A stretch of 64,000 bases of DNA from the sequence record OR352953.1; one strand, given 5' to 3'. This DNA comes from Escherichia phage AV123. Positions 13,962 through 59,957 of this stretch are shown piece by piece (the first letter of the stretch is position 1; every line of letters begins with the position of its first letter). Position numbers and translations under genes: made by a program. Below the pieces are notes generated by a model, which was not told where the DNA came from, did no database searches, and saw only the letters and a list, made by a program, of their open reading frames with translations.

Positions 13962-14175
13962 TATTTTGAAAATTTTTATTTTTATAAAAAGGGGTGTGGG
14001 TTTCATGTACGGAAATTCACCCTCTGAATAATATATTCAGAGTAAATATTATTTTGTACTCTGTTAATAAATTATTTAATTTGTTTGTTGGATTATGATA
14101 TCTGGTTTTTAAAAGGCATACTATCTCTTAACTACTATTTATAACAGAACAGTAAAATCATTTTTATAAAAAGGA

Positions 14176-14382
14176 CAAAATTATTTAAAGTTTTTACAGA
14201 TTTTTGGATACAAATTTTGAAAATGAAAAGTTCAAGTTTGGTCAAAATTATTTAAAGTTTTTGTATGTATTTCTATCCAGATTTTGAAAATGAAAACTTC
14301 AATTTTTTAAAAATTCCCCAGTTTATTTAAAGTTTTTTTGCCTTTTTCCGTAGAAAAATCAAAAATGAAAAGTTCAATTTCG
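14176..14382. repeat. three tandem ~65 bp AT-rich direct repeats
   Basis: units at 14176, 14243, 14320 sharing ATTTAAAGTTTTT...ATTTTGAAAATGAAAAGTTCAA. Confidence 0.7.
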
Positions 14383-14400
14383 TGTTTTTATAGGTGTGTT

Positions 14401-14513
14401 AATGAGAATCATTTTCGTTTGTAAATGAGAATCATTATCATTTAACTATGTAAGTGATAATCATTCTCACTAAGAGAATGAGAATCATTAGCAAATGAGA
14501 ATTTTTCTCATTT
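14401..14513. promoter_or_regulatory. cluster of five Fur-box-like palindromes (ATGAGAAT-C-ATTCTCAT family)
   Basis: copies at 14401, 14424, 14454, 14474, 14493; one symmetric substitution from E. coli Fur core TGATAATCATTATCA. Confidence 0.5.
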
Positions 14514-15152: not shown

Positions 15153-15181
15153 TTGACGGTTGGAACGATTAACGCTATTTT
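15153..15181 (+). promoter_or_regulatory. candidate sigma70 promoter
   Basis: TTGACG-17-TATTTT upstream of 15247 ORF. Confidence 0.3.
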
Positions 15182-15246
15182 GTTAGCCGTTCCAGTGTGG
15201 ATCACTGTAGCAATTGTTGTTTCAATCATTCTATAAGGCGCACACT

Positions 15247-15387
15247 ATGAGCAAGGTAATTAATCATAAAGAGTTAAACCCTACCCTTTCAATGAGTGAA
15301 TGTACCGATGGTTTTTGGCTGTATGATGATACGCGCGGTATGAATTTAGCCATGCGTGAAAAAAACAGAAGAGGCGGCGTATATTAA
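15247..15387 (+). CDS. small ORF (46 aa), possibly 5' part of a frameshifted gene
   Basis: ATG 15247; ends shortly after an A7 tract (15359-15365). Confidence 0.35.
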   Translation: MSKVINHKELNPTLSMSECTDGFWLYDDTRGMNLAMREKNRRGGVY

Positions 15388-15529
15388 AGCCCTGGGCTAC
15401 TATCAGGAGCGATTAAAGGAAGTAGAAAACAATTATAATAACCTAAAAGCAAAAGTAGATCACTTTATCAGCCAGGTAGCTCATGACGACGATGATCACT
15501 ACTGCGAACAATGTGGATCATATAGTTAA
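15356..15529 (+). CDS. small ORF in +1 frame, possibly 3' part of a frameshifted gene
   Basis: open from 15350; GTG at 15356; coiled-coil-like sequence; overlaps upstream ORF at the A7 tract. Confidence 0.35.
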   Translation: MKKTEEAAYIKALGYYQERLKEVENNYNNLKAKVDHFISQVAHDDDDHYCEQCGSYS

Positions 15530-15547
15530 AATTATCTAAAAATATTC

Positions 15548-15607
15548 TTGACAACGTTTTTTAATCTGATAAGATGTAACAAATAAGGCGGGAAGTGGTT
15601 TCCCACC
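15548..15607 (+). promoter_or_regulatory. promoter plus leader stem-loop cassette 1
   Basis: TTGACA-16-TAAGAT then GGCGGGAAGTGGTTTCCCACC hairpin, RBS, ATG 15633. Confidence 0.6.
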
Positions 15608-15632
15608 AGGCAATCAAAGAAAGGGTAACACA

Positions 15633-15995
15633 ATGAGCAAGCAAATCAATACTATCATGTTAAACCTGGTATCTTTCCGCGATGACGTGAAAAACCTTCC
15701 GCGTGATGCAGTGGATGCACGGATCGAAAGCTATCGCACACAGATCGCAACATTACCGTTAAAACGTGATCAACATGCCGCTAATATGATGCTTGATGCT
15801 ATGATTAAAAAGATGATTCAGTGTGATATTACCCTGGCTTATGAATATGCTGGCGATCTATTTGTAACATACAATAAACCCGTTCCAGGTATGAGCACAA
15901 CCGAAGAATTGCATGCCTTAAATCTGAGACAAGATGCATGGGATAACATGCGCCGTGTTATGGTATGGGTAGAAAGCGGCAAAATTTACGCGTAA
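15633..15995 (+). CDS. hypothetical early protein
   Basis: 120 aa; AAAGGG RBS. Confidence 0.6.
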   Translation: MSKQINTIMLNLVSFRDDVKNLPRDAVDARIESYRTQIATLPLKRDQHAANMMLDAMIKKMIQCDITLAYEYAGDLFVTYNKPVPGMSTTEELHALNLRQDAWDNMRRVMVWVESGKIYA

Positions 15996-15998
15996 AGA

Positions 15999-16052
15999 TT
16001 GACATTGCACTAAAACCTGATAAGCTATCTTAAAGCGGGAACTATTCCCGCT
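15999..16052 (+). promoter_or_regulatory. promoter plus leader stem-loop cassette 2
   Basis: TTGACA-16-TAAGCT then AGCGGGAACTATTCCCGCT hairpin. Confidence 0.55.
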
Positions 16053-16070
16053 TACATAGGATAAAACTTT

Positions 16071-16217
16071 ATGAAACAATATGTAATGAGTATTCACACC
16101 AAAAACGGCGCTACTGTTACGACTCCGGCACGGTTTGCACTTGTAAACCGTTGCAAAAGACTAAAACGAGAGCTAAAAAACAACCGTGCAACGGGCTTTA
16201 AACGCTGGGGAGGATAA
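16071..16217 (+). CDS. small basic protein (48 aa)
   Basis: hand-translated; AGGA RBS. Confidence 0.4.
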   Translation: MKQYVMSIHTKNGATVTTPARFALVNRCKRLKRELKNNRATGFKRWGG

Positions 16218-16219
16218 TC

Positions 16220-16480
16220 TTGTTTTTTCTAAAAGTTTTTGATAATGTGATCGCTTTTGAACATGCTACAACGTTCGACCTGGCGAGATACGCTATCAGG
16301 TTTAAAGATAATGTTTATCCCCGTGCTGGCGGCGGTTACACTATTTTTAATCATCGCAACGCGCAACTAACTGATATAACTAATCCAGATCCTGGAGTGT
16401 ATCGGATAGGCTGGCTACCGTCAAAAGATGCGGCAAGCATGTTTAAGGTATGTAAACTACTAACAGAAGAGGCGAACTAA
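16220..16480 (+). CDS. hypothetical protein (TTG start)
   Basis: 86 aa; GGAGGA RBS 5 nt before TTG; no in-frame ATG near N-terminus. Confidence 0.4.
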   Translation: MFFLKVFDNVIAFEHATTFDLARYAIRFKDNVYPRAGGGYTIFNHRNAQLTDITNPDPGVYRIGWLPSKDAASMFKVCKLLTEEAN

Positions 16481-16481
16481 C

Positions 16482-17036
16482 ATGGGGCGTGAATATGTGA
16501 TCCAGTCCTGGGTAAAGCATGATGCTAATGATCCGCGCATAATACCAGATGACATGATCGATCACATGGTAGGGTATAGCGGGGAGCAGATAGGAAATCG
16601 AGCGGCAAAGAGCAACGGCAACACCAGGACGCGATCCGTTCGCCCTGGATGGCTGGCAAATGGTAACGCTGACATTGCAAGCGCCGCAGATCCAAGCGAT
16701 GACGCTAAAAATAATCCCTTATACAGTATTGATCCGGCTTTTAAGGTGTTGGAAGAGTATCCCGCTAAATTAGCCGCACTAGATAAAGCATACGAAGAAA
16801 AACGGGTGGCATGGACTGTATACAACACCGCTAAAATGGTGCTAGATGCAAAATTGATTAAAGCCCAGGAGAAGATCAATAAACTTGTTACCATAGCGCG
16901 AGAGGAAGACCAGGACGACCAGGAGGAAGAGGAAGAAATCATGCCTAACCTGGAAGAGGAAGAGATCCAGCCATACACGCCGACAGAAGAGGAAAAAATA
17001 CAAGCCTTAAAAAATTATAAAAATTGTATTGTGTAA
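16482..17036 (+). CDS. hypothetical protein with strongly acidic C-terminus
   Basis: 184 aa; EEDQDDQEEEEEIMPNLEEEEIQ tail. Confidence 0.55.
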   Translation: MGREYVIQSWVKHDANDPRIIPDDMIDHMVGYSGEQIGNRAAKSNGNTRTRSVRPGWLANGNADIASAADPSDDAKNNPLYSIDPAFKVLEEYPAKLAALDKAYEEKRVAWTVYNTAKMVLDAKLIKAQEKINKLVTIAREEDQDDQEEEEEIMPNLEEEEIQPYTPTEEEKIQALKNYKNCIV

Positions 17037-17117
17037 GGCTTGACATATGCAAACAAGCCCCGTAATATGTACCACATAAAGCGGGGCAACGCCCCATAAG
17101 GTGAAATAAAAAATCAC

Positions 17118-17145
17118 TTGACACCTGAAATCAGTAAGCTATAAT
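17118..17145 (+). promoter_or_regulatory. sigma70 consensus promoter
   Basis: TTGACA-16-TATAAT. Confidence 0.6.
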
Positions 17146-17182
17146 GCTTATATAGATTGAAACATTACTAAGGAATAAAAGC

Positions 17183-17362
17183 ATGGCTATTATTGCAAAG
17201 ACTGAGATCGTAGGTTTAGATTCTATCATCCTGGCATATGAGGAAGCTATAGAAATGTATGTGGTTTCCTATGGTGATTATATCCGTGAATATAAATCTA
17301 TTGATCTAGCTTTTGAATGCTATATTCGCCAGGTCAATAAAGCATATGATGATTATCGTTAA
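17183..17362 (+). CDS. small hypothetical protein (59 aa)
   Basis: hand-translated; AAGGAA RBS. Confidence 0.45.
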   Translation: MAIIAKTEIVGLDSIILAYEEAIEMYVVSYGDYIREYKSIDLAFECYIRQVNKAYDDYR

Positions 17363-17457
17363 AAGTTTTAGTCTTGTGCTATTGACAACGAACGATAGTA
17401 CAAGCATAATAACTTTTATCGGGAATACTCCTAACTAATCAAAAGAGATTAAAGACT

Positions 17458-17823
17458 ATGGCTAAAAATATCAATGTTTCTGCTTATGCTACCCTGGCTA
17501 ACACTGCTAAAATTGAACTATCCAGCATTGAAGCGGTACATATTAGCGCCCGTCGCTGGTTTCAAAAGTCTTATGGTAATACTTATTTCTCTTTGATGGT
17601 TGACGTTGAGATCGGCGGTAAACTGATTGAAGTCGTTAACGTTCCGTTTCAATATGGTTATGGTGATCATTTTGATACCGTTGCCCTAGAAGAGTTTAGC
17701 AAGGTTATCAACCTGGAAGGTAAAGAGTTTTCAAATTATGCATACCTTTCCCGTTTTTGCCGTGATAATGGGATCGCTGTATACAGTCATGCAAGCGATG
17801 TTAAACGTAAAAAAGATTTATAA
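17458..17823 (+). CDS. hypothetical early protein
   Basis: 121 aa; own promoter TTGACA-18-CATAAT at 17382. Confidence 0.55.
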   Translation: MAKNINVSAYATLANTAKIELSSIEAVHISARRWFQKSYGNTYFSLMVDVEIGGKLIEVVNVPFQYGYGDHFDTVALEEFSKVINLEGKEFSNYAYLSRFCRDNGIAVYSHASDVKRKKDL

Positions 17824-17829
17824 AAAGCA

Positions 17830-17887
17830 TTGACAGCACGAATAAAAAGCATATAATACTTATATCGAGAGCGGGAATAGTTCCCGC
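17830..17887 (+). promoter_or_regulatory. promoter plus leader stem-loop cassette 3
   Basis: TTGACA-16-TATAAT then GCGGGAATAGTTCCCGC. Confidence 0.6.
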
Positions 17888-17911
17888 CTCACTGAAAAAG
17901 AGATTAACATC

Positions 17912-18151
17912 ATGGCTAAATCTAAAATGTTCTTAGGTCACAAAAACAAAACTCATTGGAATGTAAGCCTTTGGATCAACAACGATGAAGGTTTTTATAA
18001 TCTTGCGCGTGAATTTATCGCAGCTAACACCAATAAGAATGACGCAGCGCGGGATATGATGTTATTTCTTGAAAGTATGGATCAAGATAAAACGCCAGAC
18101 GGATTCAAGTTCAGTAAAACCGCGATCCGTGCCGCTATGGTTGGAATGTAA
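17912..18151 (+). CDS. hypothetical early protein
   Basis: 79 aa. Confidence 0.55.
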   Translation: MAKSKMFLGHKNKTHWNVSLWINNDEGFYNLAREFIAANTNKNDAARDMMLFLESMDQDKTPDGFKFSKTAIRAAMVGM

Positions 18152-18246
18152 AGGAGGTATAAAAATGAAACATCGTTCGACCTATCTCACAAAACGTTTT
18201 AGCTTAGATCATAAGTTAGGCTATTACGGAAGAAATAGAAAATAAT

Positions 18247-18306
18247 TTGACACTGTTTAAAATTCTGGTATAGTTTATCACATAGGGCGGGAAATGGTTT
18301 CCCGCC
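18247..18306 (+). promoter_or_regulatory. promoter plus leader stem-loop cassette 4
   Basis: TTGACA-16-TATAGT then GGCGGGAAATGGTTTCCCGCC. Confidence 0.6.
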
Positions 18307-18328
18307 AAATCAAAGAAAGGTTATCATT

Positions 18329-18556
18329 ATGGCTATCGTTATTGTTCGCGTATCCGGTACGGTTGGAAGCTCCCAGGTAGTAGCAGTTATCACAGAGAAG
18401 AAAGGGGATGATCTTCACTCCTCCTTGAATAGCTGGGCGGTCGCTAACTTTGGGCAATGGTCGAGCGTTGAGTACATCGAATCCTACCAGGTGCCAACGA
18501 TTAGCCTAACCGATCTAAATGTTGATCGCTTGTTGTGCCTGGATCAATTAAACTAA
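18329..18556 (+). CDS. hypothetical early protein
   Basis: 75 aa. Confidence 0.55.
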   Translation: MAIVIVRVSGTVGSSQVVAVITEKKGDDLHSSLNSWAVANFGQWSSVEYIESYQVPTISLTDLNVDRLLCLDQLN

Positions 18557-18564
18557 AAATAATA

Positions 18565-18620
18565 TTGACAAGATAACTAAAATCAGTAAAATGTAATGCA
18601 TAGGGCGGCAATAGTGCCGC
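18565..18620 (+). promoter_or_regulatory. promoter plus leader stem-loop cassette 5
   Basis: TTGACA-16-TAAAAT then GCGGCAATAGTGCCGC. Confidence 0.55.
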
Positions 18621-18643
18621 TCCTAGTGAGAGAGATTATCAAG

Positions 18644-18859
18644 ATGGCTAATATCCGCACACTGTTAAAAAATGCAAGTCAAGTTTTATTTTCAGATGAC
18701 GAGTATTTCAACAAAGACATTACAGGCGTGAAAAATTTAAAAGACGTGAAGGATGTTATCGGTATCCGTGGATCTTTACGTAAAGGTGACATATACGGTA
18801 ACAAGGTGCAATATAAACTGTCAAAAGATTATGATTTTACTTTGACATTTATTTCATAA
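18644..18859 (+). CDS. hypothetical early protein
   Basis: start reset to ATG 18644 downstream of the hairpin. Confidence 0.5.
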   Translation: MANIRTLLKNASQVLFSDDEYFNKDITGVKNLKDVKDVIGIRGSLRKGDIYGNKVQYKLSKDYDFTLTFIS

Positions 18860-18864
18860 AACCG

Positions 18865-18926
18865 CTTGCAATACTGCAAAAATAAAGTAAACTGTATTCA
18901 TCAAGGCGGTGGAATAGCCCACCGCC
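18865..18926 (+). promoter_or_regulatory. promoter plus leader stem-loop cassette 6
   Basis: TTGCAA -35-like, weak -10, GGCGGTGGAATAGCCCACCGCC hairpin. Confidence 0.4.
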
Positions 18927-18949
18927 TAACAAAGAGAAGAGGAAACATC

Positions 18950-19120
18950 ATGATCACTTTCGCTACCCGTGAAGCCGCTCGCAACGTTGCACGTAAAGTT
19001 AACGCCGCCAACCTGGGCGCTACGCTTAAAGCCCCGGTAAAAGATGAATCAGGTAAATGGATCTTCCCTGGTCTGCGTCACGCTGATAAGCTGGGAACGT
19101 TAACGCTAAAAAATAAATAA
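18950..19120 (+). CDS. small hypothetical protein
   Basis: start reset to ATG 18950 after hairpin; AGAGGA RBS. Confidence 0.5.
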   Translation: MITFATREAARNVARKVNAANLGATLKAPVKDESGKWIFPGLRHADKLGTLTLKNK

Positions 19121-19127
19121 AATCCGC

Positions 19128-19186
19128 TTGACAGTAGCATCATTTATAAGTAAAGTAACAACAACGGCGGGAAATGGTTTCCCGCC
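19128..19186 (+). promoter_or_regulatory. promoter plus leader stem-loop cassette 7
   Basis: TTGACA-17-TAAAGT then GGCGGGAAATGGTTTCCCGCC. Confidence 0.6.
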
Positions 19187-19206
19187 ATCAATAAAGAGAT
19201 AAGATC

Positions 19207-19566
19207 ATGAAATCAGTAAAAGCAATTAAAACTTACATTGTGTCGGCTATTTCTTTTGATGGTACTACAACCGAAAAAGAAAAGATCACCGAACTGATGC
19301 GCCGTTTTAACTCTGAATACTGGTATCCCGATAATCAAAAACGTTACAATTATAACGTGATCAAGGCGATAGCCTCATGGTTACAAGGTTTACCGTCAGA
19401 CATTAACATCGCCTTTGATTATAACGAGATTGATCATTTATTAATTGAATGGAAGTACATAAAAGAAACAAGCAAAGAAACAACCGTTACCCGTGAGCGG
19501 GAAAATTATTGGTTATATATTGCAAGCATGATCGTAATCCTGGCAAAACAGCATAACGTGGCGTAA
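19207..19566 (+). CDS. hypothetical early protein
   Basis: 119 aa. Confidence 0.55.
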   Translation: MKSVKAIKTYIVSAISFDGTTTEKEKITELMRRFNSEYWYPDNQKRYNYNVIKAIASWLQGLPSDINIAFDYNEIDHLLIEWKYIKETSKETTVTRERENYWLYIASMIVILAKQHNVA

Positions 19567-19581
19567 TTAAGAGGAAGAAAC

Positions 19582-19719
19582 ATGAACGCATCACAGCAGA
19601 TCGAAAAATTCAACCGCAGCAAGGCGCGTAAAGATTGGAACGAAGAGATCACCAAAAAAGGCGACAAGCGGAACAAAACAAAGAGAGATCGCAGCACAAA
19701 AAGATACTGGAACGAATAA
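19582..19719 (+). CDS. small lysine/arginine-rich protein (45 aa)
   Basis: hand-translated; AAGAGGAAG RBS. Confidence 0.45.
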   Translation: MNASQQIEKFNRSKARKDWNEEITKKGDKRNKTKRDRSTKRYWNE

Positions 19720-19723
19720 CAAA

Positions 19724-19747
19724 AAAGGGCGCAATAAGCGCCCTTTT
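19724..19747 (+). terminator. rho-independent terminator
   Basis: GGGCGCAATAAGCGCCC then TTTTAGC. Confidence 0.55.
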
Positions 19748-19838
19748 AGCTTATATAGAGGCTTGTTACCCATAGGCAATGGTAACGCCAGGATAAGCCT
19801 ATAAATCAACGTTAGACGGCTTTACAGGAGCTTTAAAA

Positions 19839-20021
19839 ATGAAATTAGACGAAATAAGCAAGGCACTAGCCCAGGGGCAAAGGTTATGCGCCCGATATCG
19901 TGATCAATATGGCTTCATAACTAGCGGCGTGATCCTGGGGATTGAAGGCAATAAGATTTTTATTGACACGTTGAAAAACGTTGTATATAGTGACAATATA
20001 ATCTCAATAAAACATATATGA
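19839..20021 (+). CDS. hypothetical protein
   Basis: 60 aa; AGGAG RBS. Confidence 0.45.
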   Translation: MKLDEISKALAQGQRLCARYRDQYGFITSGVILGIEGNKIFIDTLKNVVYSDNIISIKHI

Positions 20022-20029
20022 GGCAAGAA

Positions 20030-20431
20030 ATGAAAAAATTATTGATCGCTGGTTTAATCTCTTTTGGCATGGTTGGAACATCTAGCGCGGCGATATCCTC
20101 CACAGTAGCAGAATTAAGCGCCGTTGATGCAATGGAAAACGTCATGCTTATTAATAATGCGATCCCCGATGAAATCATGGAGGATTCACACATGATCGCT
20201 TATGGTGCTGTTACACAACTAACGGCAAAAATAGATAAATCTATTGTTAACGGCTTAAATGAAGATGTGCCATGTGAAATTATTACCAGTGTGCTGACTA
20301 CTCAAAATTTTACGCCGTGGTTAAAAAGTATTCAAAAAGTACACAGTACAGCCGCAGATCGTAGCAATGAAAAACTAGTGTCAGCACTTGCAACGTATAC
20401 CCTAGCAAAATGCACCGAGATAAAAGATTGA
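20030..20431 (+). CDS. secreted protein with signal peptide
   Basis: MKKLLIAGLISFGMVGTSSAA; start reset to ATG 20030. Confidence 0.55.
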   Translation: MKKLLIAGLISFGMVGTSSAAISSTVAELSAVDAMENVMLINNAIPDEIMEDSHMIAYGAVTQLTAKIDKSIVNGLNEDVPCEIITSVLTTQNFTPWLKSIQKVHSTAADRSNEKLVSALATYTLAKCTEIKD

Positions 20432-20478
20432 CAACATAGAAAGCACGTTATAAGATACACACAACAAAGGAGAACTAC

Positions 20479-20781
20479 ATGAACGGCATAGCTAAAACGT
20501 TTTTTCTTTTTTCTGGTGTAAATGATCCATCAATAAAAGTCGATAGTGTAAAAGAAAACAATACTATCACCGCTAAATTGTTTCAAGATGAAACAAATAA
20601 CGTGCTAATCATTAATCTTAAAGAAATAACGAAAGGTTATTATACTATTGCTTACCATGCAATCTATCGTGCTGGTACTAGTGAGGAAGTGCAAACAAGC
20701 AACAACGAAAGCGCGGCACTACCTGGTGATCTGGTGCTGGGCGTTATCAGTTTAATTGTCAATGATTTTTTTAAGGAGTAA
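20479..20781 (+). CDS. hypothetical protein
   Basis: 100 aa; promoter TTGACA-17-TAAGAT at 20428. Confidence 0.55.
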   Translation: MNGIAKTFFLFSGVNDPSIKVDSVKENNTITAKLFQDETNNVLIINLKEITKGYYTIAYHAIYRAGTSEEVQTSNNESAALPGDLVLGVISLIVNDFFKE

Positions 20782-20785
20782 AACC

Positions 20786-20881
20786 ATGCCCTATTTACAT
20801 TTATTTTTCGGTATCTTATTGACAGGATCTTTTTTCTTCTGTATGCTTGTTTCTATTGTAAACCACGTTTTAAGACATTAA
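20786..20881 (+). CDS. hydrophobic micro-protein (31 aa)
   Basis: hand-translated; strong TAAGGAG RBS. Confidence 0.4.
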   Translation: MPYLHLFFGILLTGSFFFCMLVSIVNHVLRH

Positions 20882-20890
20882 GGAAACAGC

Positions 20891-21010
20891 ATGAAAATTA
20901 TTCCCGTACAATATAGCGTAATAAATCCAGCATACGAGGAAGGAAGGAAAACAAGCATGGCTTTATGTTGTATTGCTACTATAGCCATGTTGTTATACAT
21001 TGTGTTTTAA
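20891..21010 (+). CDS. hydrophobic micro-protein (39 aa)
   Basis: hand-translated; AAGGAAA RBS. Confidence 0.35.
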   Translation: MKIIPVQYSVINPAYEEGRKTSMALCCIATIAMLLYIVF

Positions 21011-21110
21011 TAGGTTTTATAGTTGTACGCTTTAAAGGCTTGACAATTTTTTGTTATGCTTTAAACTATATCTTGAAAACGGCAAAGGCCGCAAACAAAA
21101 GGGTAAAATT

Positions 21111-21434
21111 ATGAAATCTGTGATCGGTGTTTATTTGGATAACTCTGATTTTTTCTATCATCGCGCGCGTTTACTTGATGCTATTGAAATGATAGAATCA
21201 GGCTTTAAAGAGTATCGCCTTGCACATGATGACCTGGAAGCATTACAGGGCAATAGTGTTTTTACATTGCAAGCGAAAGCACTATGCAAAAGCCGGATCG
21301 AGATTGCAAGTAAAAAGATACAACGCGGCATGTCCTGGTTGCGCACCGCAGAAATCAACATGGGGCAATGGTACGGCGAAAACTTAGAAAATAAACGCAC
21401 TTTTGTAAATGTAGAAAATCTTAAAGATTATTGA
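21111..21434 (+). CDS. hypothetical protein
   Basis: start reset to ATG 21111. Confidence 0.5.
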   Translation: MKSVIGVYLDNSDFFYHRARLLDAIEMIESGFKEYRLAHDDLEALQGNSVFTLQAKALCKSRIEIASKKIQRGMSWLRTAEINMGQWYGENLENKRTFVNVENLKDY

Positions 21435-21496
21435 TTGACAGCACACCTAACAGATAGTATATTGTATCTCATAGAGCGGGGAAATGGTTTCCCCGC
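21435..21496 (+). promoter_or_regulatory. promoter plus leader stem-loop cassette 8
   Basis: TTGACA-17-TATATT then GCGGGGAAATGGTTTCCCCGC. Confidence 0.6.
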
Positions 21497-21516
21497 CTTA
21501 ACAGAAGAGATAAGCT

Positions 21517-21801
21517 ATGAAGATCACAAAAGCACTTTCCAACTATGCAGCACGTCGCGGATTATGTTTAACCGTTGAAAATTTAGGGAAAGAAGATTTT
21601 TTGTGCTTTTGGGAGCTTGAGAATGATAATGAGTGGATCTTCTCTTATTCTATCTGCGAAGATCAAAACGGTTGTTTATTAACCTGGCGCGGTAATATCT
21701 ATCTACCGGAAGAAATCAAAGAAGAATTACCAGGCACGATCATGACTGAGAAACAGCTTAAGGAAGTGATCAATTTTGTAGGGCAAAACATTAAAAAATA
21801 A
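21517..21801 (+). CDS. hypothetical early protein
   Basis: 94 aa. Confidence 0.55.
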   Translation: MKITKALSNYAARRGLCLTVENLGKEDFLCFWELENDNEWIFSYSICEDQNGCLLTWRGNIYLPEEIKEELPGTIMTEKQLKEVINFVGQNIKK

Positions 21802-21802
21802 T

Positions 21803-21862
21803 TTGACACTAGGCAAACAACGTAGTAAAGTTTATCACATAGGGCGGGAAATGGTTTCCCGC
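21803..21862 (+). promoter_or_regulatory. promoter plus leader stem-loop cassette 9
   Basis: TTGACA-17-TAAAGT then GGGCGGGAAATGGTTTCCCGC. Confidence 0.6.
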
Positions 21863-21885
21863 TCACAACAGAAGAGAAACAAATC

Positions 21886-22056
21886 ATGATCCCAACTATG
21901 TTTTATGTATCGCGCAAAGGTCACAATATTTTTTGGTCTGAAGATTTAAATGAAGCCATGACGTTTGCCCGTGATCGTGTTGCTATCGGTGGCGTTAACA
22001 TTACTGTAACCGATGAAAACGGCATTGAATACTATAACGGCGACGATGAAGAGTAA
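21886..22056 (+). CDS. small hypothetical protein (56 aa)
   Basis: hand-translated; follows cassette 9. Confidence 0.45.
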   Translation: MIPTMFYVSRKGHNIFWSEDLNEAMTFARDRVAIGGVNITVTDENGIEYYNGDDEE

Positions 22057-22063
22057 TTAATAA

Positions 22064-22084
22064 GGCGGGGGAGTATTCCCCGCC
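22064..22084 (+). promoter_or_regulatory. leader stem-loop 10 (no obvious promoter)
   Basis: GGCGGGGGAGTATTCCCCGCC just upstream of RBS of 22104 gene. Confidence 0.5.
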
Positions 22085-22103
22085 GTCAATAAAGAGGTAA
22101 ATC

Positions 22104-22373
22104 ATGAAAATATCTTTGGACGTTGCAATCAAGGCCATTGAATCCGGTTACACCCTGGTAAAAGATGATAAGGCTAAAACCGTGCACCACGTTAACAAGG
22201 AAACAGGCGAAAGCATGATCACATATAAAACCGCCTATTTTCTCCAATCAGTAGCAGATCCGCGCGTACAACGCCAGGTTACGGCGGCTATTGCTAAAAA
22301 ATTATGTGCTTTACAGGGTACAAGTTTTAACGAGATCGCCCCGTGTTTTGACTGGTCGAGCTTGAAAAAATAG
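22104..22373 (+). CDS. hypothetical early protein
   Basis: 89 aa. Confidence 0.55.
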   Translation: MKISLDVAIKAIESGYTLVKDDKAKTVHHVNKETGESMITYKTAYFLQSVADPRVQRQVTAAIAKKLCALQGTSFNEIAPCFDWSSLKK

Positions 22374-22374
22374 T

Positions 22375-22430
22375 TTGACAACAATTATAAATCGGGTAGA
22401 ATGTATTTCGTAGGGCGGCAATAGTGCCGC
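22375..22430 (+). promoter_or_regulatory. promoter plus leader stem-loop cassette 11
   Basis: TTGACA-17-TAGAAT then GGCGGCAATAGTGCCGC. Confidence 0.6.
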
Positions 22431-22453
22431 TCACAACTAAAAGAGAAATCAGC

Positions 22454-22648
22454 ATGGCGCTTAAAAAACTAACAAGCAATACTCGTTGGGATGAAATCGA
22501 CGGAGAAGTTTACATTTTCGCCCGTAAACCAGGTGATCAAAAATGGTCTAAGGCTTTTACTTGCCACCCTGCAACAATAGACCTGATAAAAAGGGAAGGT
22601 TTACGTGAAGCGGTAGCAAGAAGTTTACTGATCCCTTATAAAAAATAG
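22454..22648 (+). CDS. hypothetical early protein
   Basis: start reset to ATG 22454 after hairpin. Confidence 0.5.
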   Translation: MALKKLTSNTRWDEIDGEVYIFARKPGDQKWSKAFTCHPATIDLIKREGLREAVARSLLIPYKK

Positions 22649-22649
22649 T

Positions 22650-22711
22650 TTGACAATACGCGGTTATCTGGTAAAGTGTACGACATAGGGCGGGGCAATA
22701 AGGCAACGCCC
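22650..22711 (+). promoter_or_regulatory. promoter plus leader stem-loop cassette 12
   Basis: TTGACA-16-TAAAGT then GGGCG...CGCCC hairpin. Confidence 0.55.
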
Positions 22712-22729
22712 ATTAATGAGGGTAGAATC

Positions 22730-22834
22730 ATGTTAGAGAAAATTTTCACGGTTGTAATAGTTGGCCTGGCGTTATCGGTTGGATTGGTTGCAACTATGGC
22801 TAACATGATCCTATCTTCCCACGGTATTGGATAA
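22730..22834 (+). CDS. hydrophobic micro-protein (34 aa)
   Basis: hand-translated; GAGGG RBS. Confidence 0.4.
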   Translation: MLEKIFTVVIVGLALSVGLVATMANMILSSHGIG

Positions 22835-22844
22835 GGTGAATCAA

Positions 22845-23060
22845 ATGATCACGAATAAGACAGGTAAAACAGAATTTTTACGCGGCTTGCAAATAGGTAA
22901 ACCTGAGATCTGGCATTGCACTAAATCCGCGCATAATGAAATGAAAGATTTTACCGCTACTTTACAACGTGTTAAAATATCTATCACGCAGAAAAAAGCC
23001 TTGTTAGTAGTAGAAAACGAGATACCGCAAACCATTATTATTGTCGAGCGTACAGCATGA
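22845..23060 (+). CDS. hypothetical protein
   Basis: start reset from TTG 22827 to ATG 22845. Confidence 0.45.
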   Translation: MITNKTGKTEFLRGLQIGKPEIWHCTKSAHNEMKDFTATLQRVKISITQKKALLVVENEIPQTIIIVERTA

Positions 23061-23443
23061 AAACTGAAATCATTATTGAAATCATCAACGGTTATAAAGA
23101 AGCCTTTATTTTTGCTGAATCAGCCAGGGATCATGAAGGCTATTTTATTGATAACTTAGACGATTATGATTTTTCAGATCAAGCCCATCAGCGGATCATT
23201 CATGACGTAGCGGCTTATTGTGATGCCAATGATGCTGCTATCTCTGAGGCAATGAGCGACGGCGCTACAGCAAACCAGATCGGGAATGATTTACATTTTA
23301 CCCGTAACGGTCACGGCGTAGGCTTTTGGGATCGCCCTGAAATATACACTACTAACACCGCCAACCGCCTAACAAATGCAGCTAAATTAATGCCATCGGT
23401 GCATGCTTACATTGGTGAAGATAATTTGATTTATATTGAATAA
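23057..23443 (+). CDS. hypothetical protein
   Basis: 128 aa; ATG overlaps upstream stop. Confidence 0.55.
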   Translation: MKTEIIIEIINGYKEAFIFAESARDHEGYFIDNLDDYDFSDQAHQRIIHDVAAYCDANDAAISEAMSDGATANQIGNDLHFTRNGHGVGFWDRPEIYTTNTANRLTNAAKLMPSVHAYIGEDNLIYIE

Positions 23444-23449
23444 AAAGTA

Positions 23450-23508
23450 TTGACACCGATCCCCAATATGTTATTATTTACCACGTAGGCGGGAAATGGT
23501 TTCCCGCC
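23450..23508 (+). promoter_or_regulatory. promoter plus leader stem-loop cassette 13
   Basis: TTGACA-16-TATTAT then GGCGGGAAATGGTTTCCCGCC. Confidence 0.6.
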
Positions 23509-23531
23509 AGGTAATCAAAAAGGTAAATACT

Positions 23532-23921
23532 ATGCGCAACCTGGTTTCTGTTTCTAACGTTGAAAAATTCCAATCTTTACAGGGTATCGTTAACAACGTA
23601 GCGCCTTTTTTAGTCAATGGCTTGATTGCAAAGATGAAAAATAAACATCATGCGGCATGGTCTGCTTACTGCTTTGATAATGATGAAAAAGCGGCTGAAA
23701 TGATGTTAAATATGCTGTTAGACAGTGTAGAATCATCTTTACCGGAAAACATCGCAGAAGAGATCACCTATCGTTATAATATGGCGATCACTTACCAGGA
23801 GGTTGCGCAATTTAATATGATGGATGATGACGAACAACAGGATCAGGAAATGTTCTGGGAGTATGCAGATCGTCAATCGGCTTTTGATGAAAAGTTAGCG
23901 ATGTATTATAACGAATATTAA
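23532..23921 (+). CDS. hypothetical acidic protein
   Basis: start reset to ATG 23532; track start lay inside the hairpin. Confidence 0.55.
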   Translation: MRNLVSVSNVEKFQSLQGIVNNVAPFLVNGLIAKMKNKHHAAWSAYCFDNDEKAAEMMLNMLLDSVESSLPENIAEEITYRYNMAITYQEVAQFNMMDDDEQQDQEMFWEYADRQSAFDEKLAMYYNEY

Positions 23922-23933
23922 TACACGGTAAAA

Positions 23934-23961
23934 GAAAGGGGCGCACTAAGCGCCCTTTTTT
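23934..23961 (+). terminator. rho-independent terminator
   Basis: GGGCGCACTAAGCGCCC then TTTTTTG. Confidence 0.65.
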
Positions 23962-24305
23962 GTATTCTTTTTCACAATGGAAGCGACACGTAAAGAATAG
24001 GCGTAAAGGTGGCGTAAAACCATCTAAAACCGACTGTAACCGCTTAAACAAGGTAGGAATGATTAATCACCTTACCAGGATGAAAAAGCTGTTATAAAGC
24101 TATCTAGAGCGTTTAAAGCACATAGGAAATAATTTGCTTTTTATCTTGCCTTTTATCCTGCTTTTGATTATTATTATGGAACGGGCGGCACCTGGGGACA
24201 GGGGAAGATAATCACCGGAAGATCCCGCTATATATTAATAGCTAATACCTATCAAACAACAAAACATCAAAGGAATAAACTATCAAATCTTTACAATCCT
24301 ACCTA

Positions 24306-24365
24306 TTGACACCGGATCGCCCTTATACTAAGATGTATCACGTAAGGCGGGAAGTGGTTTCCCGC
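24306..24365 (+). promoter_or_regulatory. promoter plus leader stem-loop cassette 14
   Basis: TTGACA-17-TAAGAT then GGCGGGAAGTGGTTTCCCGC. Confidence 0.6.
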
Positions 24366-24384
24366 TCAATATAGGAATCATATC

Positions 24385-24615
24385 ATGATCGAACAAATTA
24401 AACGCGCTGAAGCTATTAACGGCAATGTGATCTATTCTGTCAGCAATAACGAAAAAGGCGTACCCTATGCAGCGGTGATAGTACAGCCTGACGGTGATTA
24501 TTGGTTTACTGTATACGGATCTTATTCTTTTGGGCGTCCAGTACATGATAAAATTTTGAAAGTAGCTAATCCCACTGGGAAGAATATCACAGTAGAAAAA
24601 TTTTTTGAAAAATAA
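24385..24615 (+). CDS. hypothetical early protein
   Basis: 76 aa. Confidence 0.55.
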   Translation: MIEQIKRAEAINGNVIYSVSNNEKGVPYAAVIVQPDGDYWFTVYGSYSFGRPVHDKILKVANPTGKNITVEKFFEK

Positions 24616-25074: not shown

Positions 25075-25087
25075 ATAACATTTCAAA

Positions 25088-25116
25088 CAAGGGCGCTTAT
25101 TGCGCCCTTTCTTTTT
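25088..25116 (+). terminator. rho-independent terminator
   Basis: GGGCGCTTATTGCGCCC then TTTCTTTTT. Confidence 0.65.
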
Positions 25117-25321
25117 ACCTAAATAAAGATGATAGCTTTTACCTATCAAAAACGTTCACCGAAAAAAGTGAATAGATCGCGGTATCGAGCTAATCAAGGA
25201 GCAGATGAACAACCATACCATGAAGATCATAAGGCGCTTACAACGTGTTTTAGACCGCTTATTTTTAATTTCTTCATGTAATTACCTGGCAAAAACAGCC
25301 TTTTTCTTGTCTTTCCTCTTA

Positions 25322-25392
25322 AATGATAATCATTCTTATTTATAGCTGATTATTTATGCAATAAATTGCATAATGCAATAATGAGAATCATT
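25322..25392. promoter_or_regulatory. two Fur-box-like palindromes
   Basis: AATGATAATCATTCTTAT at 25322 and AATGAGAATCATT at 25380. Confidence 0.45.
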
Positions 25393-25801
25393 CTTAACTT
25401 AAGACCATCTAACCTATAAAATAATAAGTTATCTAACTAAATTAAAACTAATTATCTCACCTTTATTTATAACTTACTGTTACTATCTCATTGATAACAT
25501 TGTATTAAACAATAATAACTAATATAAATCATTACTAAGCTAAATATAATCTATCTAACCCTTAAAACTACAATTATAATCTATCGAATTGTTGCACAAA
25601 GTAACTATTAAATTGTTAGTAACATTACTAAATAATTCACATCCTATCTATTTATGATCTAATCTTTACCTTCCTATCTATTACTTAGATAATCATTTCA
25701 TACAGTAACCATTTCATGTAGTAATCATTCCATACAATAACTATAACAAGAAATATAATTCGCAAGCGTATCATTAGCAGCCTATGCCGGACACATAGGC
25801 G

Positions 25802-25948
25802 GCTAATAATAACGCAACTACACACCCCACATAATAACCATCACCGATAGTTATTATTTGTGCTTATGTAGCTTGCAACAATTGCAAGCGCAACAATATA
25901 CTAGGGTATATTGTATCCCTTACATTGTTGCGGTGCGTTATTATTAGC
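25802..25948. repeat. long-range inverted repeat with internal palindromes
   Basis: GCTAATAATAACGCAAC at 25802 versus GTTGCG(GTG)CGTTATTATTAGC at 25927; inner ACAATATAC..GTATATTGT. Confidence 0.6.
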
Positions 25949-26241
25949 TAATGTTTAGAACATTGGCTATAATATAAGCTATCCAATAATAAACATGGTG
26001 AATAATGACACTGATGATCATAATGCGCCACCCTCCAGGGGGCGCTATGTGAACACAAAGAAATCTTTCTTGTCAAGAAAAATATCACCATTATTGCGCA
26101 AAATTATTTATATCTGAATAGATGATTTTTCATACTATTGCCCCCTTGATTATTACCATTTGTTGAGCCTACTTTCTTAAAAGCGCAATAAAATAGAATT
26201 ATATTGATTTTTAGTCGGTTTTATAGTACAGAAAGTATGCA

Positions 26242-26456
26242 AATGATAATCATTATCAGCTATCTTCCACGGGTGGCACTATTTCACACCAGATCATTTC
26301 ATTTGGCAAGGTGTATATAGATGTTTAGACTTGCCAAGCCATTGATTTCCTTAGAATTTATCTGTTTTGTTGTGAGTAGTACCTTTCTTGCTTAGAAAAT
26401 AATCAAAAGTCTTATAAGTCATTGAATGATAATACAAATGATAATTATTCTCATTG
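26242..26456. promoter_or_regulatory. Fur-box-like sites
   Basis: AATGATAATCATTATC at 26242 (15/15 to Fur core) and GAATGATAAT..ATGATAATTATTCTCATTG at 26424. Confidence 0.5.
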
Positions 26457-59877: not shown

Positions 59878-59899
59878 AAATTCTCCTTCTCTCTTTTAA

Positions 59900-59957
59900 G
59901 GAGAGCATAGCTCTCCTAACGTTAGCCTATACTACACGAATCTCAATTAAAAGTCAA
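59900..59957 (-). promoter_or_regulatory. minus-strand promoter with leader stem-loop
   Basis: minus strand TTGACT-17-TAGTAT followed by AGGAGAGCTATGCTCTCCT hairpin upstream of 59877 gene. Confidence 0.4.

Follow-up and report, generated by a model that had tools for sequence, protein, structure and literature searches.

Escherichia phage AV123 (sequence record OR352953.1) carries, in the 64,000-nt stretch of DNA analyzed here (the window), fourteen units in which a promoter is followed by a GC-rich hairpin, and these cassettes are a genuine and conserved variation on a type known from T4-like phages. Our preferred reading, held tentatively and with slightly less than even confidence, is that the hairpin is a transcribed 5'-proximal leader that stabilizes or insulates early mRNAs, the repeats also serving as recombination substrates. 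The window belongs to a phi92-like coliphage (Justusliebigvirus, Stephanstirmvirinae), a lineage that rules out a T4-type identity for this phage.

The cassette array and its promoters

Sequence inspection and a catalogue of the repeats place the fourteen units on the plus strand between 15548 and 24387, confirming an earlier note that described repeated promoter and hairpin units across about 9 kb. The order within a unit is TTGACA, 16–17 nt, TAnnnT, about 10 nt, the GC hairpin, a purine-rich Shine-Dalgarno sequence and ATG. The repeat unit is about 85 nt long and is present 14–18 times, always in the same orientation. The core pattern TTGACA-N16/17-TANNNT-N8-14-GGCGG has nine matches in the window and none in any of 100 dinucleotide-preserving shuffles of it. 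About 15 small, predicted early genes of unknown function, falling in PHROG families likewise without assigned function, would be driven by the cassettes. In the list below each numbered cassette starts at its −35 hexamer; the orphan at 17040, the half-cassette at 22064, the weak-hairpin units at 17382 and 21040 and the hairpin-less promoters at 17118 and 20428 were absent from the earlier note's listing.

15548..15635, plus strand: cassette 1; −35 15548–15553, −10 TAAGAT 15570–15575, hairpin 15587–15607 with a C:A mismatch, ATG 15633, 120-aa ORF
15999..16073, plus strand: cassette 2; promoter 15999–16026, hairpin 16033–16053 AAGCGGGAA-CTA-TTCCCGCTT, ATG 16071, 48-aa ORF
17040..17117, plus strand: cassette 3, an orphan without an ORF; promoter 17040–17068, hairpin 17083–17095 GGGGC-AAC-GCCCC, adjoining the hairpin-less promoter at 17118
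17118..17185, plus strand: hairpin-less promoter; consensus TTGACA-16-TATAAT, no GC hairpin, ATG 17183, 59-aa ORF
17382..17460, plus strand: promoter with degenerate hairpin; TTGACA-17-CATAAT, hairpin remnant CGGGAATACTCC, ATG 17458, 121-aa ORF
17830..17914, plus strand: cassette 4; promoter 17830–17857 (TATAAT), hairpin 17871–17887, ATG 17912, 79 aa, DUF7249
18247..18331, plus strand: cassette 5; promoter 18247–18274, hairpin 18286–18306 (exact consensus), ATG 18329, 75 aa
18565..18646, plus strand: cassette 6; promoter 18565–18592, hairpin 18603–18622 GGGCGGCA-ATAG-TGCCGCTC, ATG 18644, 71 aa
18866..18952, plus strand: cassette 7; promoter TTGCAA-16-TAAACT 18866–18893, hairpin 18904–18927, ATG 18950, 56 aa
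19128..19209, plus strand: cassette 8; promoter 19128–19156, hairpin 19166–19186 (exact consensus), ATG 19207, 119 aa
19723..19747, plus strand: canonical intrinsic terminator; GC stem and T-run, closing the first cassette run
20428: consensus promoter without a GC hairpin
21040..21113, plus strand: promoter with weak hairpin; TTGACA-16-TAAACT, small hairpin CGGC-AAAG-GCCG 21080–21091, ATG 21111
21435..21519, plus strand: cassette 9; promoter 21435–21463, hairpin 21476–21496, ATG 21517, 94 aa
21803..21888, plus strand: cassette 10; promoter 21803–21831, hairpin 21842–21864, ATG 21886, 56 aa
22064..22106, plus strand: promoterless half-cassette; hairpin 22064–22084 and Shine-Dalgarno sequence, ATG 22104, 89 aa
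22375..22456, plus strand: cassette 11; promoter 22375–22402, hairpin 22413–22432, ATG 22454, 64 aa
22650..22732, plus strand: cassette 12; promoter 22650–22677, interrupted hairpin 22688–22711, ATG 22730
23450..23534, plus strand: cassette 13; promoter 23450–23477, hairpin 23488–23508 (exact consensus), ATG 23532, 129 aa
23933..23961, plus strand: canonical intrinsic terminator; T6 run
24306..24387, plus strand: cassette 14; promoter 24306–24334, hairpin 24346–24366, ATG 24385, 76 aa

The TTGACA and TATAAT-like elements at 16–17 nt claimed in the earlier note are present in all fourteen units (one −35 being TTGCAA), with −10 hexamers of the form TAnnnT such as TATAAT, TATAGT, TAAAAT and TAAGAT. 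This supports their assignment as near-consensus sigma-70 promoters that are probably active, and the 20 nt upstream of them are 78% A+T, against 61% for the region. The predicted ribosome sites also hold, with purine-rich AGAG/AAGG Shine-Dalgarno sequences about 21 nt 3' of the hairpins followed by ATG. Outside the cassette block the 64 kb contain no GCGGG-type hairpins, and in the closest complete genome, that of phage Paula, the hairpin family is limited to the early small-ORF block with one outlier.

Conserved pairing and fixed position of the hairpin

The consensus hairpin GGCGGGAAATGGTTTCCCGCC is found exactly at 18286, 19166 and 23488, and the remaining copies differ from it (GGGCGGCAATAGTGCCGCTC, AGGCGGTGGAATAGCCCACCGCCT, GCGGGAATAGTTCCCGC, GGGGCAACGCCCC and others). 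Folding of the leaders, a check proposed in the earlier note, covered thirteen promoter-driven leaders and the promoterless leader at 22057–22103, the orphan at 17040, which has no ORF, not being among them. A stable 5'-proximal hairpin is predicted in 13 of the 14 (−12.8 to −18.7 kcal/mol, z-scores −2.6 to −5.8), namely 12 of the 13 promoter-driven leaders and the promoterless one, with the Shine-Dalgarno region unpaired and only 3–5 nt lying 5' of the stem.

Pairing is conserved through compensatory changes. Among 88 distinct copies taken from eight related phages, 96.5% of alignment cells are paired and six of nine stem pairs show changes on both sides, one position occurring as G-C (37), G-U (30) and A-U (6). 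The covariation score of 0.256 compares with 0.127 in shuffles, none of 500 of which reaches it, and with 0.011–0.061 in slid registers, in an alignment fitted to the model whose rows mix paralogues and orthologues, so that the shuffle statistics overstate independence. Among sense-strand rows G:T pairs outnumber A:C/C:A (39 versus 15), an excess due mainly to one widely duplicated stem position, and an unbiased scan of internal stem mismatches gave C:A 7 versus G:T 4. Because this wobble test is weak, selection may also operate on the DNA or on the antisense strand.

The position of the hairpin is constrained as well. Among 119 distinct cassettes, taken from the window and from eight related phages, it starts 10.3 ± 2.0 nt past the −10 (at 10–11 nt in 81), and a C followed by A or G is conserved at positions 7 and 8 after the −10, which puts hairpin onset near +4 of the predicted transcript in most copies. 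Of 97 sense-strand copies in the relatives, 83 are directly preceded, at a constant spacing, by a near-consensus promoter with no more than one −35 mismatch; in most of the other 14 the −35 is weaker but the −10 normal. The searched literature yielded no start-site, RNA-end or half-life data for this phage group.

Comparison with described cassettes and leaders

The earlier note's statement that the architecture matches promoter early stem-loops (PeSLs) is too strong: the cassette logic and gene-block setting agree, but not the anatomy (stem-loop position and terminator role) or the T4-type lineage. PeSLs (RB49/phi1, PST/T4, nt-1/KVP40; Arbiol et al. 2010, PMC2839356; Comeau et al. 2014, PMC4122927) are likewise composite repeats of about 70–100 nt that combine a near-consensus sigma-70 early promoter and the A/T-rich sequence upstream of it with a GC stem-loop, a Shine-Dalgarno sequence and a start codon. 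They too are concentrated where small genes of unknown function form a block and border the sites at which close relatives differ by an insertion, deletion or replacement, and degraded half-copies occur in both systems. The PeSL stem-loop is variable in position, usually between −35 and −10 or over the −10 in RB49/phi1 (PMC2839356 section 14; PMC4122927 figs 3-4) and directly upstream of the promoter in PST and nt-1; its authors take it to terminate or attenuate transcription coming from upstream (PMC2839356; PMC4122927). It lies at most "just before the start", whereas the present hairpin has a fixed place some 10 nt downstream of the −10, at the predicted mRNA 5' end and without terminator features. 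PeSLs belong to T4-like phages, whereas the present cassettes occur in Stephanstirmvirinae and Vequintavirinae.

A 5'-terminal stabilizing stem-loop is also found in the leader of T7 gene 10. Like the cassettes, the E. coli ompA 5' UTR and papA (PMC3997798) have a stable hairpin a few nucleotides from the 5' end and then an open ribosome site. The geometry that blocks RppH and the RNase E 5' sensor in ompA, papA and T7 is shared by the cassettes, but those are single, experimentally mapped leaders, whereas here a multi-copy family has predicted starts and a putative stabilizing role. Among related myoviruses, Certrevirus CB7, CR3, CR8 and CR9 (sigma-70 early promoters with UP elements; Buttimer et al. 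2020, PMC7344957) and rV5 (PMC3606486) similarly carry 13–21 consensus promoter copies among short hypothetical ORFs; these papers describe the promoter only and mention no downstream hairpin, which in the present cassettes forms a conserved second half. Bacterial promoter-coupled terminators (Fletcher et al. 2026 preprint, 10.64898/2026.08.19.745784) also combine hairpin and promoter in one intergenic segment between tandem genes, but terminate some 10 bp before the next start with a U-tract that doubles as promoter element, whereas the present hairpin lies downstream of the predicted start and has no U-tract. The same promoter-hairpin geometry, with unrelated stems, recurs in Vequintavirus A51.2, a contig related to mycobacteriophage Julie1 and several uncultivated viral contigs.

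Possible roles of the hairpin

By analogy with PeSLs, the hairpins could terminate or damp upstream transcription, possibly with the help of a factor, so that each gene's own promoter dominates without early downstream spill. This role was proposed for PeSL stem-loops with lacZ reporter support in RB49/phi1 (PMC2839356 section 14), where the RB49 stem-loop lowered expression of a downstream reporter as much as rrnB T1 did, showing that a GC hairpin can attenuate expression in some contexts. The present hairpins are GC-rich, stable and found in every intergenic gap of the same-strand array, and the deposited Paula annotation labels many of them "terminator". We nevertheless consider attenuation unlikely. 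As the earlier note stated, a U-tract is missing: the 10 nt 3' of the cassette hairpins average 1.5 T and 5.4 A and no T-run follows any of them, whereas the three canonical terminators in this 10-kb block have T4–T6 runs. Situated 3' of the −10 and 5' of the ribosome site, the hairpin falls inside the predicted transcript, where a terminator would also halt the cassette's own mRNA, which supports the claim of a leader hairpin over a terminator. The Paula labels are mostly on the strand opposite the genes, because the A-rich upstream sequence is a T-run on that strand, and a terminator does not need the fixed distance from the −10.

It is also rather improbable that the hairpins act chiefly within polycistronic read-through RNA, where, after endonucleolytic cleavage in the A-rich spacer, they would protect the upstream cistron's 3' end from PNPase and RNase II, like REP elements, and form the new 5' end of the cistron downstream. 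Such processing is favored by the promoterless hairpin at 22064, which is conserved in phages muut, outra and SKA64 and is replaced in phage REC by a different hairpin that is still paired; its retention without a promoter indicates that at least part of the function needs no 5'-terminal position. Each hairpin is followed by an A/U-rich single-stranded stretch, and the rarity of canonical terminators leads one to expect read-through. A pure 3' barrier would not need the promoter found at a fixed distance in most copies from the relatives, however, and stems of 6–10 bp are too short for RNase III.

We give little credence to a site, either hairpin RNA or palindromic DNA (+4 to +24), at which a phage or host factor would jointly shut off, antiterminate or translationally control the early genes. 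The element is common to the whole early class and restricted to it, its position just past the start would suit an operator or nut-like site, and the stem base GCGG...CCGC is almost invariant. Yet no fewer than six different stems and many kinds of loop coexist in one genome, and the loops vary and are even inverted among copies (CTA/TAG, ATAG/CTAT), which argues for a structural rather than sequence-specific role. Half-sites that covary for pairing fit a single sequence-specific dimer poorly, other phages share the geometry with unrelated stems, Rfam holds no match for the hairpin, and no candidate binding protein was found, the Srd-like gp11 of rV5 having no homologue in this phage.

Comparison of related genomes, another check named in the earlier note, did reveal cassette-flanked gene swaps. 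Some differences between relatives are exact indels of one cassette and one ORF; cassette 11, for example, is missing with its ORF from phage outra. Cassettes make up 19.5% of the region and contain 31 of 51 homology breakpoints (p about 1e-10), an enrichment inseparable from swaps ending at gene boundaries, as cassettes constitute 72% of intergenic DNA. Since the breakpoints cluster at the hairpin (+36 to +50 from the −35), loop inversions are typical of palindrome-mediated events, an RB49 crossover maps within a PeSL loop (PMC2839356) and A:C stem mismatches are not clearly rarer than G:T, the palindromes might solely promote or mark recombination (by forming cruciforms or by template switching) and travel with the cassettes without any RNA role, but this is a slim prospect given that simple homology needs no palindrome, that pairing is kept by compensatory changes including the G-C, G-U, A-U series, that distances to both the −10 and the ATG are constrained, and that unrelated phages converge on the same geometry.

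Under the preferred leader reading, each unit would be a self-contained early-gene expression cassette. The A/T-rich, UP-like stretch and promoter would be read by host RNA polymerase from the conserved pyrimidine-purine step 7–8 nt past the −10, giving every early transcript a GC hairpin of 6–10 bp from about 3–5 nt into the RNA and, some 21 nt beyond it, an unstructured purine-rich ribosome site. RppH and RNase E both require single-stranded 5' ends (PMC3997798, section 6), hence the stabilization long known to come from 5' secondary structure, and the likeliest job of the hairpin would be to keep RppH and 5'-end-dependent RNase E away from the 5' end. Counting against this are the promoterless hairpin at 22064 and several consensus promoters of the same block (17118, 20428) that lack a hairpin. 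In read-through RNA the hairpin would flank the upstream cistron on its 3' side and could hold back exonucleases. The hairpin may also give each ORF an equally open ribosome-site context, allowing strong, uniform expression of many unrelated small genes right after infection, and the repeats, by their number and common orientation, would supply the homology for adding, deleting or swapping one cassette and one ORF per event.

The promoter–hairpin unit and its genomic setting

Reading of positions 15300–24600, together with a listing of every TTGACA in the window, recovered 14 units on the + strand, in agreement with the number and positions given in an earlier note made from the sequence alone. 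Each unit comprises, in order, a −35 hexamer (TTGACA in 13, TTGCAA in one), a 16- to 17-nt spacer, a TAnnnT −10, ∼10 nt, a GC-rich hairpin, a purine-rich Shine–Dalgarno sequence and ATG. The predicted promoters match the consensus at 10–12 of 12 positions in all 14 units, and the 20 nt 5′ of the units contain A-tracts and are 78% A+T against a background of 61%.

Units and related elements of the early block (units by the start of the −35 hexamer)
15548, 15999, 17040, 17830, 18247, 18565, 18866, 19128, 21435, 21803, 22375, 22650, 23450, 24306, + strand: the 14 units
17040, + strand: cassette without an ORF
22064, + strand: hairpin and Shine–Dalgarno sequence without a promoter
17382 and 21040, + strand: units with decayed hairpins
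17118 and 20428: consensus promoters without a hairpin
19723–47, 23933–61 and 25089–109: textbook terminators with T4–T6 runs

The consensus hairpin of the earlier note, GGCGGGAAATGGTTTCCCGCC, is present as three exact copies (18286, 19166 and 23488), the remaining copies having differing stems and loops. The core pattern matched the window nine times and 100 shuffles not once. MAFFT misregistered stems of unequal length when aligning the units (A1–A3), and a covariance model derived from seven ungapped copies was used instead. Its hits, like hairpins of the GCGG type, are confined to 15.5–24.4 kb of the 64-kb window. In the complete genome of the related phage Paula (146.5 kb) the model matches only at the corresponding 29.6–38.8 kb, with one outlier upstream of a TerC-like gene. 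We conclude that this is a real, conserved regulatory cassette, confirming the earlier observation and partly supporting its interpretation.

The position of the hairpin was analyzed in 119 distinct cassettes. It starts 10.3 ± 2.0 nt past the −10 (at 10–11 nt in 81 of the 119), spans approximately +4 to +24 of the predicted RNA and is followed after 21.1 ± 2.7 nt by the ATG, with the purine-rich Shine–Dalgarno sequence between, in line with the placement of the hairpin between the −10 and the ribosome-binding site in the earlier note. Positions 7 and 8 past the −10 hold a conserved C and then a purine (A or G). This step has the place and sequence expected of a sigma-70 start, and together with the promoter geometry it predicts that the RNA begins with an unpaired tail of 3–5 nt ahead of the stem. 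The 21 nt that separate hairpin and ATG leave no room for a promoter-like sequence, so transcription could begin downstream of the hairpin only if the consensus promoters were nonfunctional.

The region is 96–99% identical to Escherichia phages Eryne, ESCO9, Paula, VEcB and alia (Justusliebigvirus, Stephanstirmvirinae; phi92 group), its closest records, and the phage is therefore not of T4 type. At 85–95% identity to the region there are also records carrying other host names (Campylobacter phage A145, A110a and others; Acinetobacter phage ABPW7; Pseudomonas phage PsgM04F; Enterococcus phage heks), which suggests contaminating coliphages or wrong host labels. The cassette block comprises the 9 kb at the promoter-proximal end of a long series of small genes on the same strand and starts beside a non-coding region. 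Cassette-driven ORFs encode 48–184 aa and have PHROG matches solely to families of unknown function, one with DUF7249; an ATGGCT (Met-Ala) start is common among them (17183, 17458, 17912, 18329 and 18644). The first early gene, a Phi92_gp225 homologue (15247–15529), is split into two ORFs by an A-run at ∼15360 that is one base longer (A7) than in the related phage SKA64 (A6), and is either a frameshifted gene or the product of a homopolymer sequencing error.

The non-coding stretches flanking the block carry repeats of their own. A palindrome very similar to the E. coli Fur box, AATGA(G/T)AATCATT(A/C)TCA, is clustered at 14398–14512 and 25322–26455, with five copies in the stretch to the left of the block and four in that to the right. 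It accounts for 14 strand-hits against 0.13 expected, and the Fur consensus with ≤3 mismatches for five hits against 0.09 expected. These clusters could serve iron- or Fur-responsive control, Fur titration or as an origin-associated repeat. Adjoining the left-hand cluster, at 14160–14380, are three tandem A/T-rich direct repeats of ∼70 nt (71–73% identity to the reference copy), which look iteron-like.

Module exchange and relation to PeSL cassettes

Alignment of 14.5–25.5 kb to nine relatives bore out the suggestion that genes flanked by cassettes have been swapped among related phages. Very close relatives differ by whole modules. Phage outra lacks exactly 22381–22640, comprising one cassette and one ORF and flanked by direct repeats AAAAAATAGTTTGACAA, and muut lacks 18608–18886 and 17189–17458 but has an additional module where the 17830 cassette lies. 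At the left-most module, Paula (L001 856–1479) has its own hairpin cassette and gp226, whereas the window at 15159–15561 differs completely, having a hairpin-less TTGACG promoter and the gp225-like gene; Paula is otherwise 98% identical. In total, 31 of 51 homology breakpoints lie within cassettes, which occupy 19.5% of the block (binomial p ∼1e-10), with a concentration at +36 to +50 relative to the −35, the location of the hairpin; as cassettes account for 72% of intergenic DNA, cassette breakpoints are inseparable from gene-boundary breakpoints. The junction of the 17189/17458 deletion between muut and the window falls exactly at the shared ATGGCT, and the ORF start may thus be part of the recombining homology.

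The earlier note likened the units to the promoter-early stem-loop (PeSL) cassettes of T4-like phages. In these, A/T-rich DNA and a sigma-70 early promoter are combined with a GC stem-loop, a Shine–Dalgarno sequence and a start codon; they are enriched in hyperplastic regions where they flank indels, and their stem-loop acts as terminator or attenuator of upstream transcription (PMC2839356; PMC4122927). PeSLs are further characterized by excision of cassette-bounded mini-circles (Arbiol 2010; Comeau 2014). The likeness holds for the predicted strong, near-consensus sigma-70-like promoter (spacer ∼17 nt in PeSL, 16–17 nt here), the A/T-rich upstream stretch (78% against 61%), the Shine–Dalgarno sequence and start codon at the 3′ end of the unit (ATG 21.1 ± 2.7 nt past the hairpin), the concentration among small ORFs of unknown function in a plastic region (15.5–24.4 kb in the window, 29.6–38.8 kb in Paula), and the flanking of indels and replacements between close relatives, subject to the cassettes' large share of intergenic DNA. 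It fails for the position of the stem-loop and for host lineage. The PeSL stem-loop is variable in position, being just upstream of the promoter in PST and nt-1 (PMC2839356 section 14; PMC4122927 figs 3–4); it occupies sites inside the promoter or 5′ of it, reaching at most the nucleotides immediately ahead of the transcription start. The present hairpin, at approximately +4 to +24, lies further downstream than any of the five positions given for PeSLs in PMC2839356 section 14. The host lineage is Stephanstirmvirinae and not a T4-like myovirus. The unit is therefore PeSL-like as a shuffling cassette yet outside the PeSL family in the strict sense, and its stem-loop probably has a role other than that of a PeSL terminator or attenuator.

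Our search of the literature on phi92-, rV5- and Certrevirus-type phages yielded neither an account of the cassette's hairpin half nor a transcriptome for the group. Repeated sigma-70 promoters with UP elements have been reported in the small-ORF early region of related Certrevirus phages with no mention of a hairpin (PMC7344957), and for rV5 only promoters and terminators are listed (PMC3606486).

Pairing conservation and candidate roles of the hairpin

Searching eight related regions with the covariance model (two further Justusliebigvirus, four Phapecoctavirus, one Vequintavirus and one record labelled Pseudomonas phage) gave 114 hits, 88 of them distinct. Among the distinct copies, standard pairs fill 96.5% of alignment cells and two-sided changes occur at six of nine pairs. 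The covariation score, from copies that share descent and an alignment fitted to the model, was 0.256 compared with 0.127 in shuffles and 0.011–0.061 for slid registers, and was reached by none of 500 shuffles. The case for selected pairing stands independently of these statistics, because stems as varied as GGCGGGAAA, GGGCGGCA, AGGCGGTGG, GGGGCG and GCGGCGGA coexist in a single genome. Pairing rather than sequence is thus conserved, as it is expected to be in a 5′-terminal stabilizing stem-loop. Loops are not conserved and some are inverted, within the window (CTA at 16035–16052 and TAG at 17870–17887, on a shared stem) as well as between phages (ATAG in the window, CTAT in SKA64, L008 4130–4169), which points to a structural rather than sequence-specific role. 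Loop inversion is the outcome expected of template switching or recombination at a palindrome.

Folding of the leader RNAs, a check proposed in the earlier note, gave stable structures for 13 of 14 leaders (−12.8 to −18.7 kcal/mol, z −2.6 to −5.8), namely 12 of the 13 promoter-driven leaders and the promoterless 22057–22103, with the ORF-less 17040 cassette left out. The exception, the 15587 leader, carries a C:A mismatch. The ribosome site is open in the predicted folded RNAs. At a permissive threshold Rfam contained no family for the hairpin, and its three weak hits are attributable to chance.

A stable hairpin a few nucleotides from the predicted 5′ end, followed by an open ribosome site, makes the 5′-terminal stabilizing stem-loop the best-supported analogy. 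Single-stranded 5′ ends are required by RppH as well as by the 5′ sensor of RNase E, and this requirement accounts for the long-recognized protection conferred by 5′ structure (PMC3997798). By this analogy the leader hairpin would shield the 5′ end of early mRNAs, and a standardized leader would free the expression of many unrelated ORFs from coding-sequence and read-through context. We hold the explanation by a 5′-proximal leader hairpin tentatively, at slightly less than even confidence when taken as a whole. Its limits within the block are the consensus promoters that have no hairpin and the conserved hairpin at 22064 that has no promoter. At the latter site the related phage REC has a different but still paired hairpin, suggesting that the structure is also useful inside polycistronic RNA, where it could act, for example, as a barrier to 3′ exonucleases or as a processing landmark. 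A processing barrier as the main role of the hairpin we consider less probable than protection of the 5′ end.

Whether pairing is selected in RNA or in DNA is the weakest link of the case. A purely DNA-level role, in which selection acts on the palindrome, would be consistent with an unbiased strand-asymmetry scan inside the stems, where sense-strand wobbles are not favored (C:A 7, G:T 4). The same scan counted 14 G:T against 7 A:C or C:A at the first pair past the stem, and sense-strand rows of the model alignment contain 39 G:T against 15 A:C or C:A, an excess dominated by one duplicated stem position (G-C 37, G-U 30, A-U 6). These wobble counts give at most modest support to pairing in the sense transcript, and we assign the DNA palindrome a smaller weight than the leader hairpin.

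The description of the hairpins as leader elements and not terminators also agrees with the comparison with terminators in the same block. A T-run is absent 3′ of all 14 hairpins (the 10 nt after the hairpin average 1.5 T and 5.4 A, with a range of 0–3 T), and in a + strand terminator scan, which looks for a stem followed by a U-tract, no cassette hairpin passes, whereas the block's three terminators have runs of T4–T6. Those three form a repeat family, GGGCGC-AATAA-GCGCCC plus a T-run (19717–19747, 23929–23961 and 25081–25119), of which the third copy is inverted, producing a 49-nt inverted repeat around 23.9–25.1 kb. Because a terminator within the leader would abort the cassette's own transcript, efficient termination at these hairpins is unlikely. 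Weak attenuation may occur; as the main role, attenuation is weighted below 5′-end protection, given hairpins that have no T-run beside true terminators that do. The deposited annotation of Paula (LR865361.1, PAULA_TERMINATOR_010 to 020) nevertheless places terminator features at many cassette hairpins, most of them antisense to the genes, and our scan reproduces these opposite-strand calls. There are no convergent genes for such terminators to serve, and their T-run is the complement of the A-rich sequence 5′ of the hairpin; the labels are probably an artifact of automatic prediction.

Binding of a regulator at the hairpin is also less probable than the protective role, and a sequence-specific dimeric repressor is unlikely given the many co-varying stems in one genome. 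RNase III sites were ruled out by stems of only 6–10 bp. A link to an Srd-like RNase E activator was considered, as rV5 gp11 has been termed Srd-like (PMC3606486), and was rejected when tblastn detected no homologue of this protein in the window or the whole Paula genome.

Wider occurrence and significance

The promoter–hairpin geometry recurs with unrelated stems in Vequintavirus A51.2, in a contig that shares 98% identity with mycobacteriophage Julie1 and in several uncultivated viral contigs (L053, L081, L117/L011, L024/L045 and L041). In these uncultivated contigs the stems differ from copy to copy, lie at a constant distance from the −10 and are followed by an A-rich tail. A hairpin at fixed distance is thereby seen in the window, Phapecoctavirus, Vequintavirus, the Julie1-related contig and several uncultivated viral contigs. 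This wider sample comes from a pattern search requiring GGCGG after the −10 and is biased accordingly; a loose pattern scan of IMG/VR gave mostly single chance matches, leaving multi-copy contigs alone as informative. Outside the early block, a few other consensus-like promoters with unrelated hairpins at +11 to +12 are present at 59899–59917 (− strand) in the window and at 61921, 115034 and 139621 in Paula, one example being AGGAGAGCTATGCTCTCCT followed by TAAAAGAGAGAA, so the promoter-then-hairpin layout is not restricted to the GCGG family. Biased as it is, the sample points to a design of wider occurrence than published work implies. Phage early cassettes may generally share such a design, so far little described, with a hairpin at a fixed ∼10 nt past the −10, at the 5′ end of the RNA, a reading that seems to us doubtful on balance. 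If true, it would constitute a portable module of promoter, 5′ cap-like hairpin and ribosome site through which new genes could be expressed, their mRNAs could outlast host- or phage-induced RNA decay, and modular gene exchange could be driven.

In phi92- and rV5-like therapeutic coliphages, nearly all early genes are of unknown function and their expression signals have been listed only as sigma-70 promoters. Recognition of the unit as promoter, transcribed leader hairpin and ribosome site corrects terminator labels in at least one public record (Paula), provides precise predicted 5′ ends for approximately 15 early mRNAs per genome, and supplies phage engineering with a small, naturally occurring expression cassette. 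It also carries the PeSL concept, gene shuffling mediated by cassettes, over to large myoviruses of a second, unrelated group. Should the proposed role at the 5′ end be correct, the hairpin would be a simple means by which a phage protects its first transcripts.
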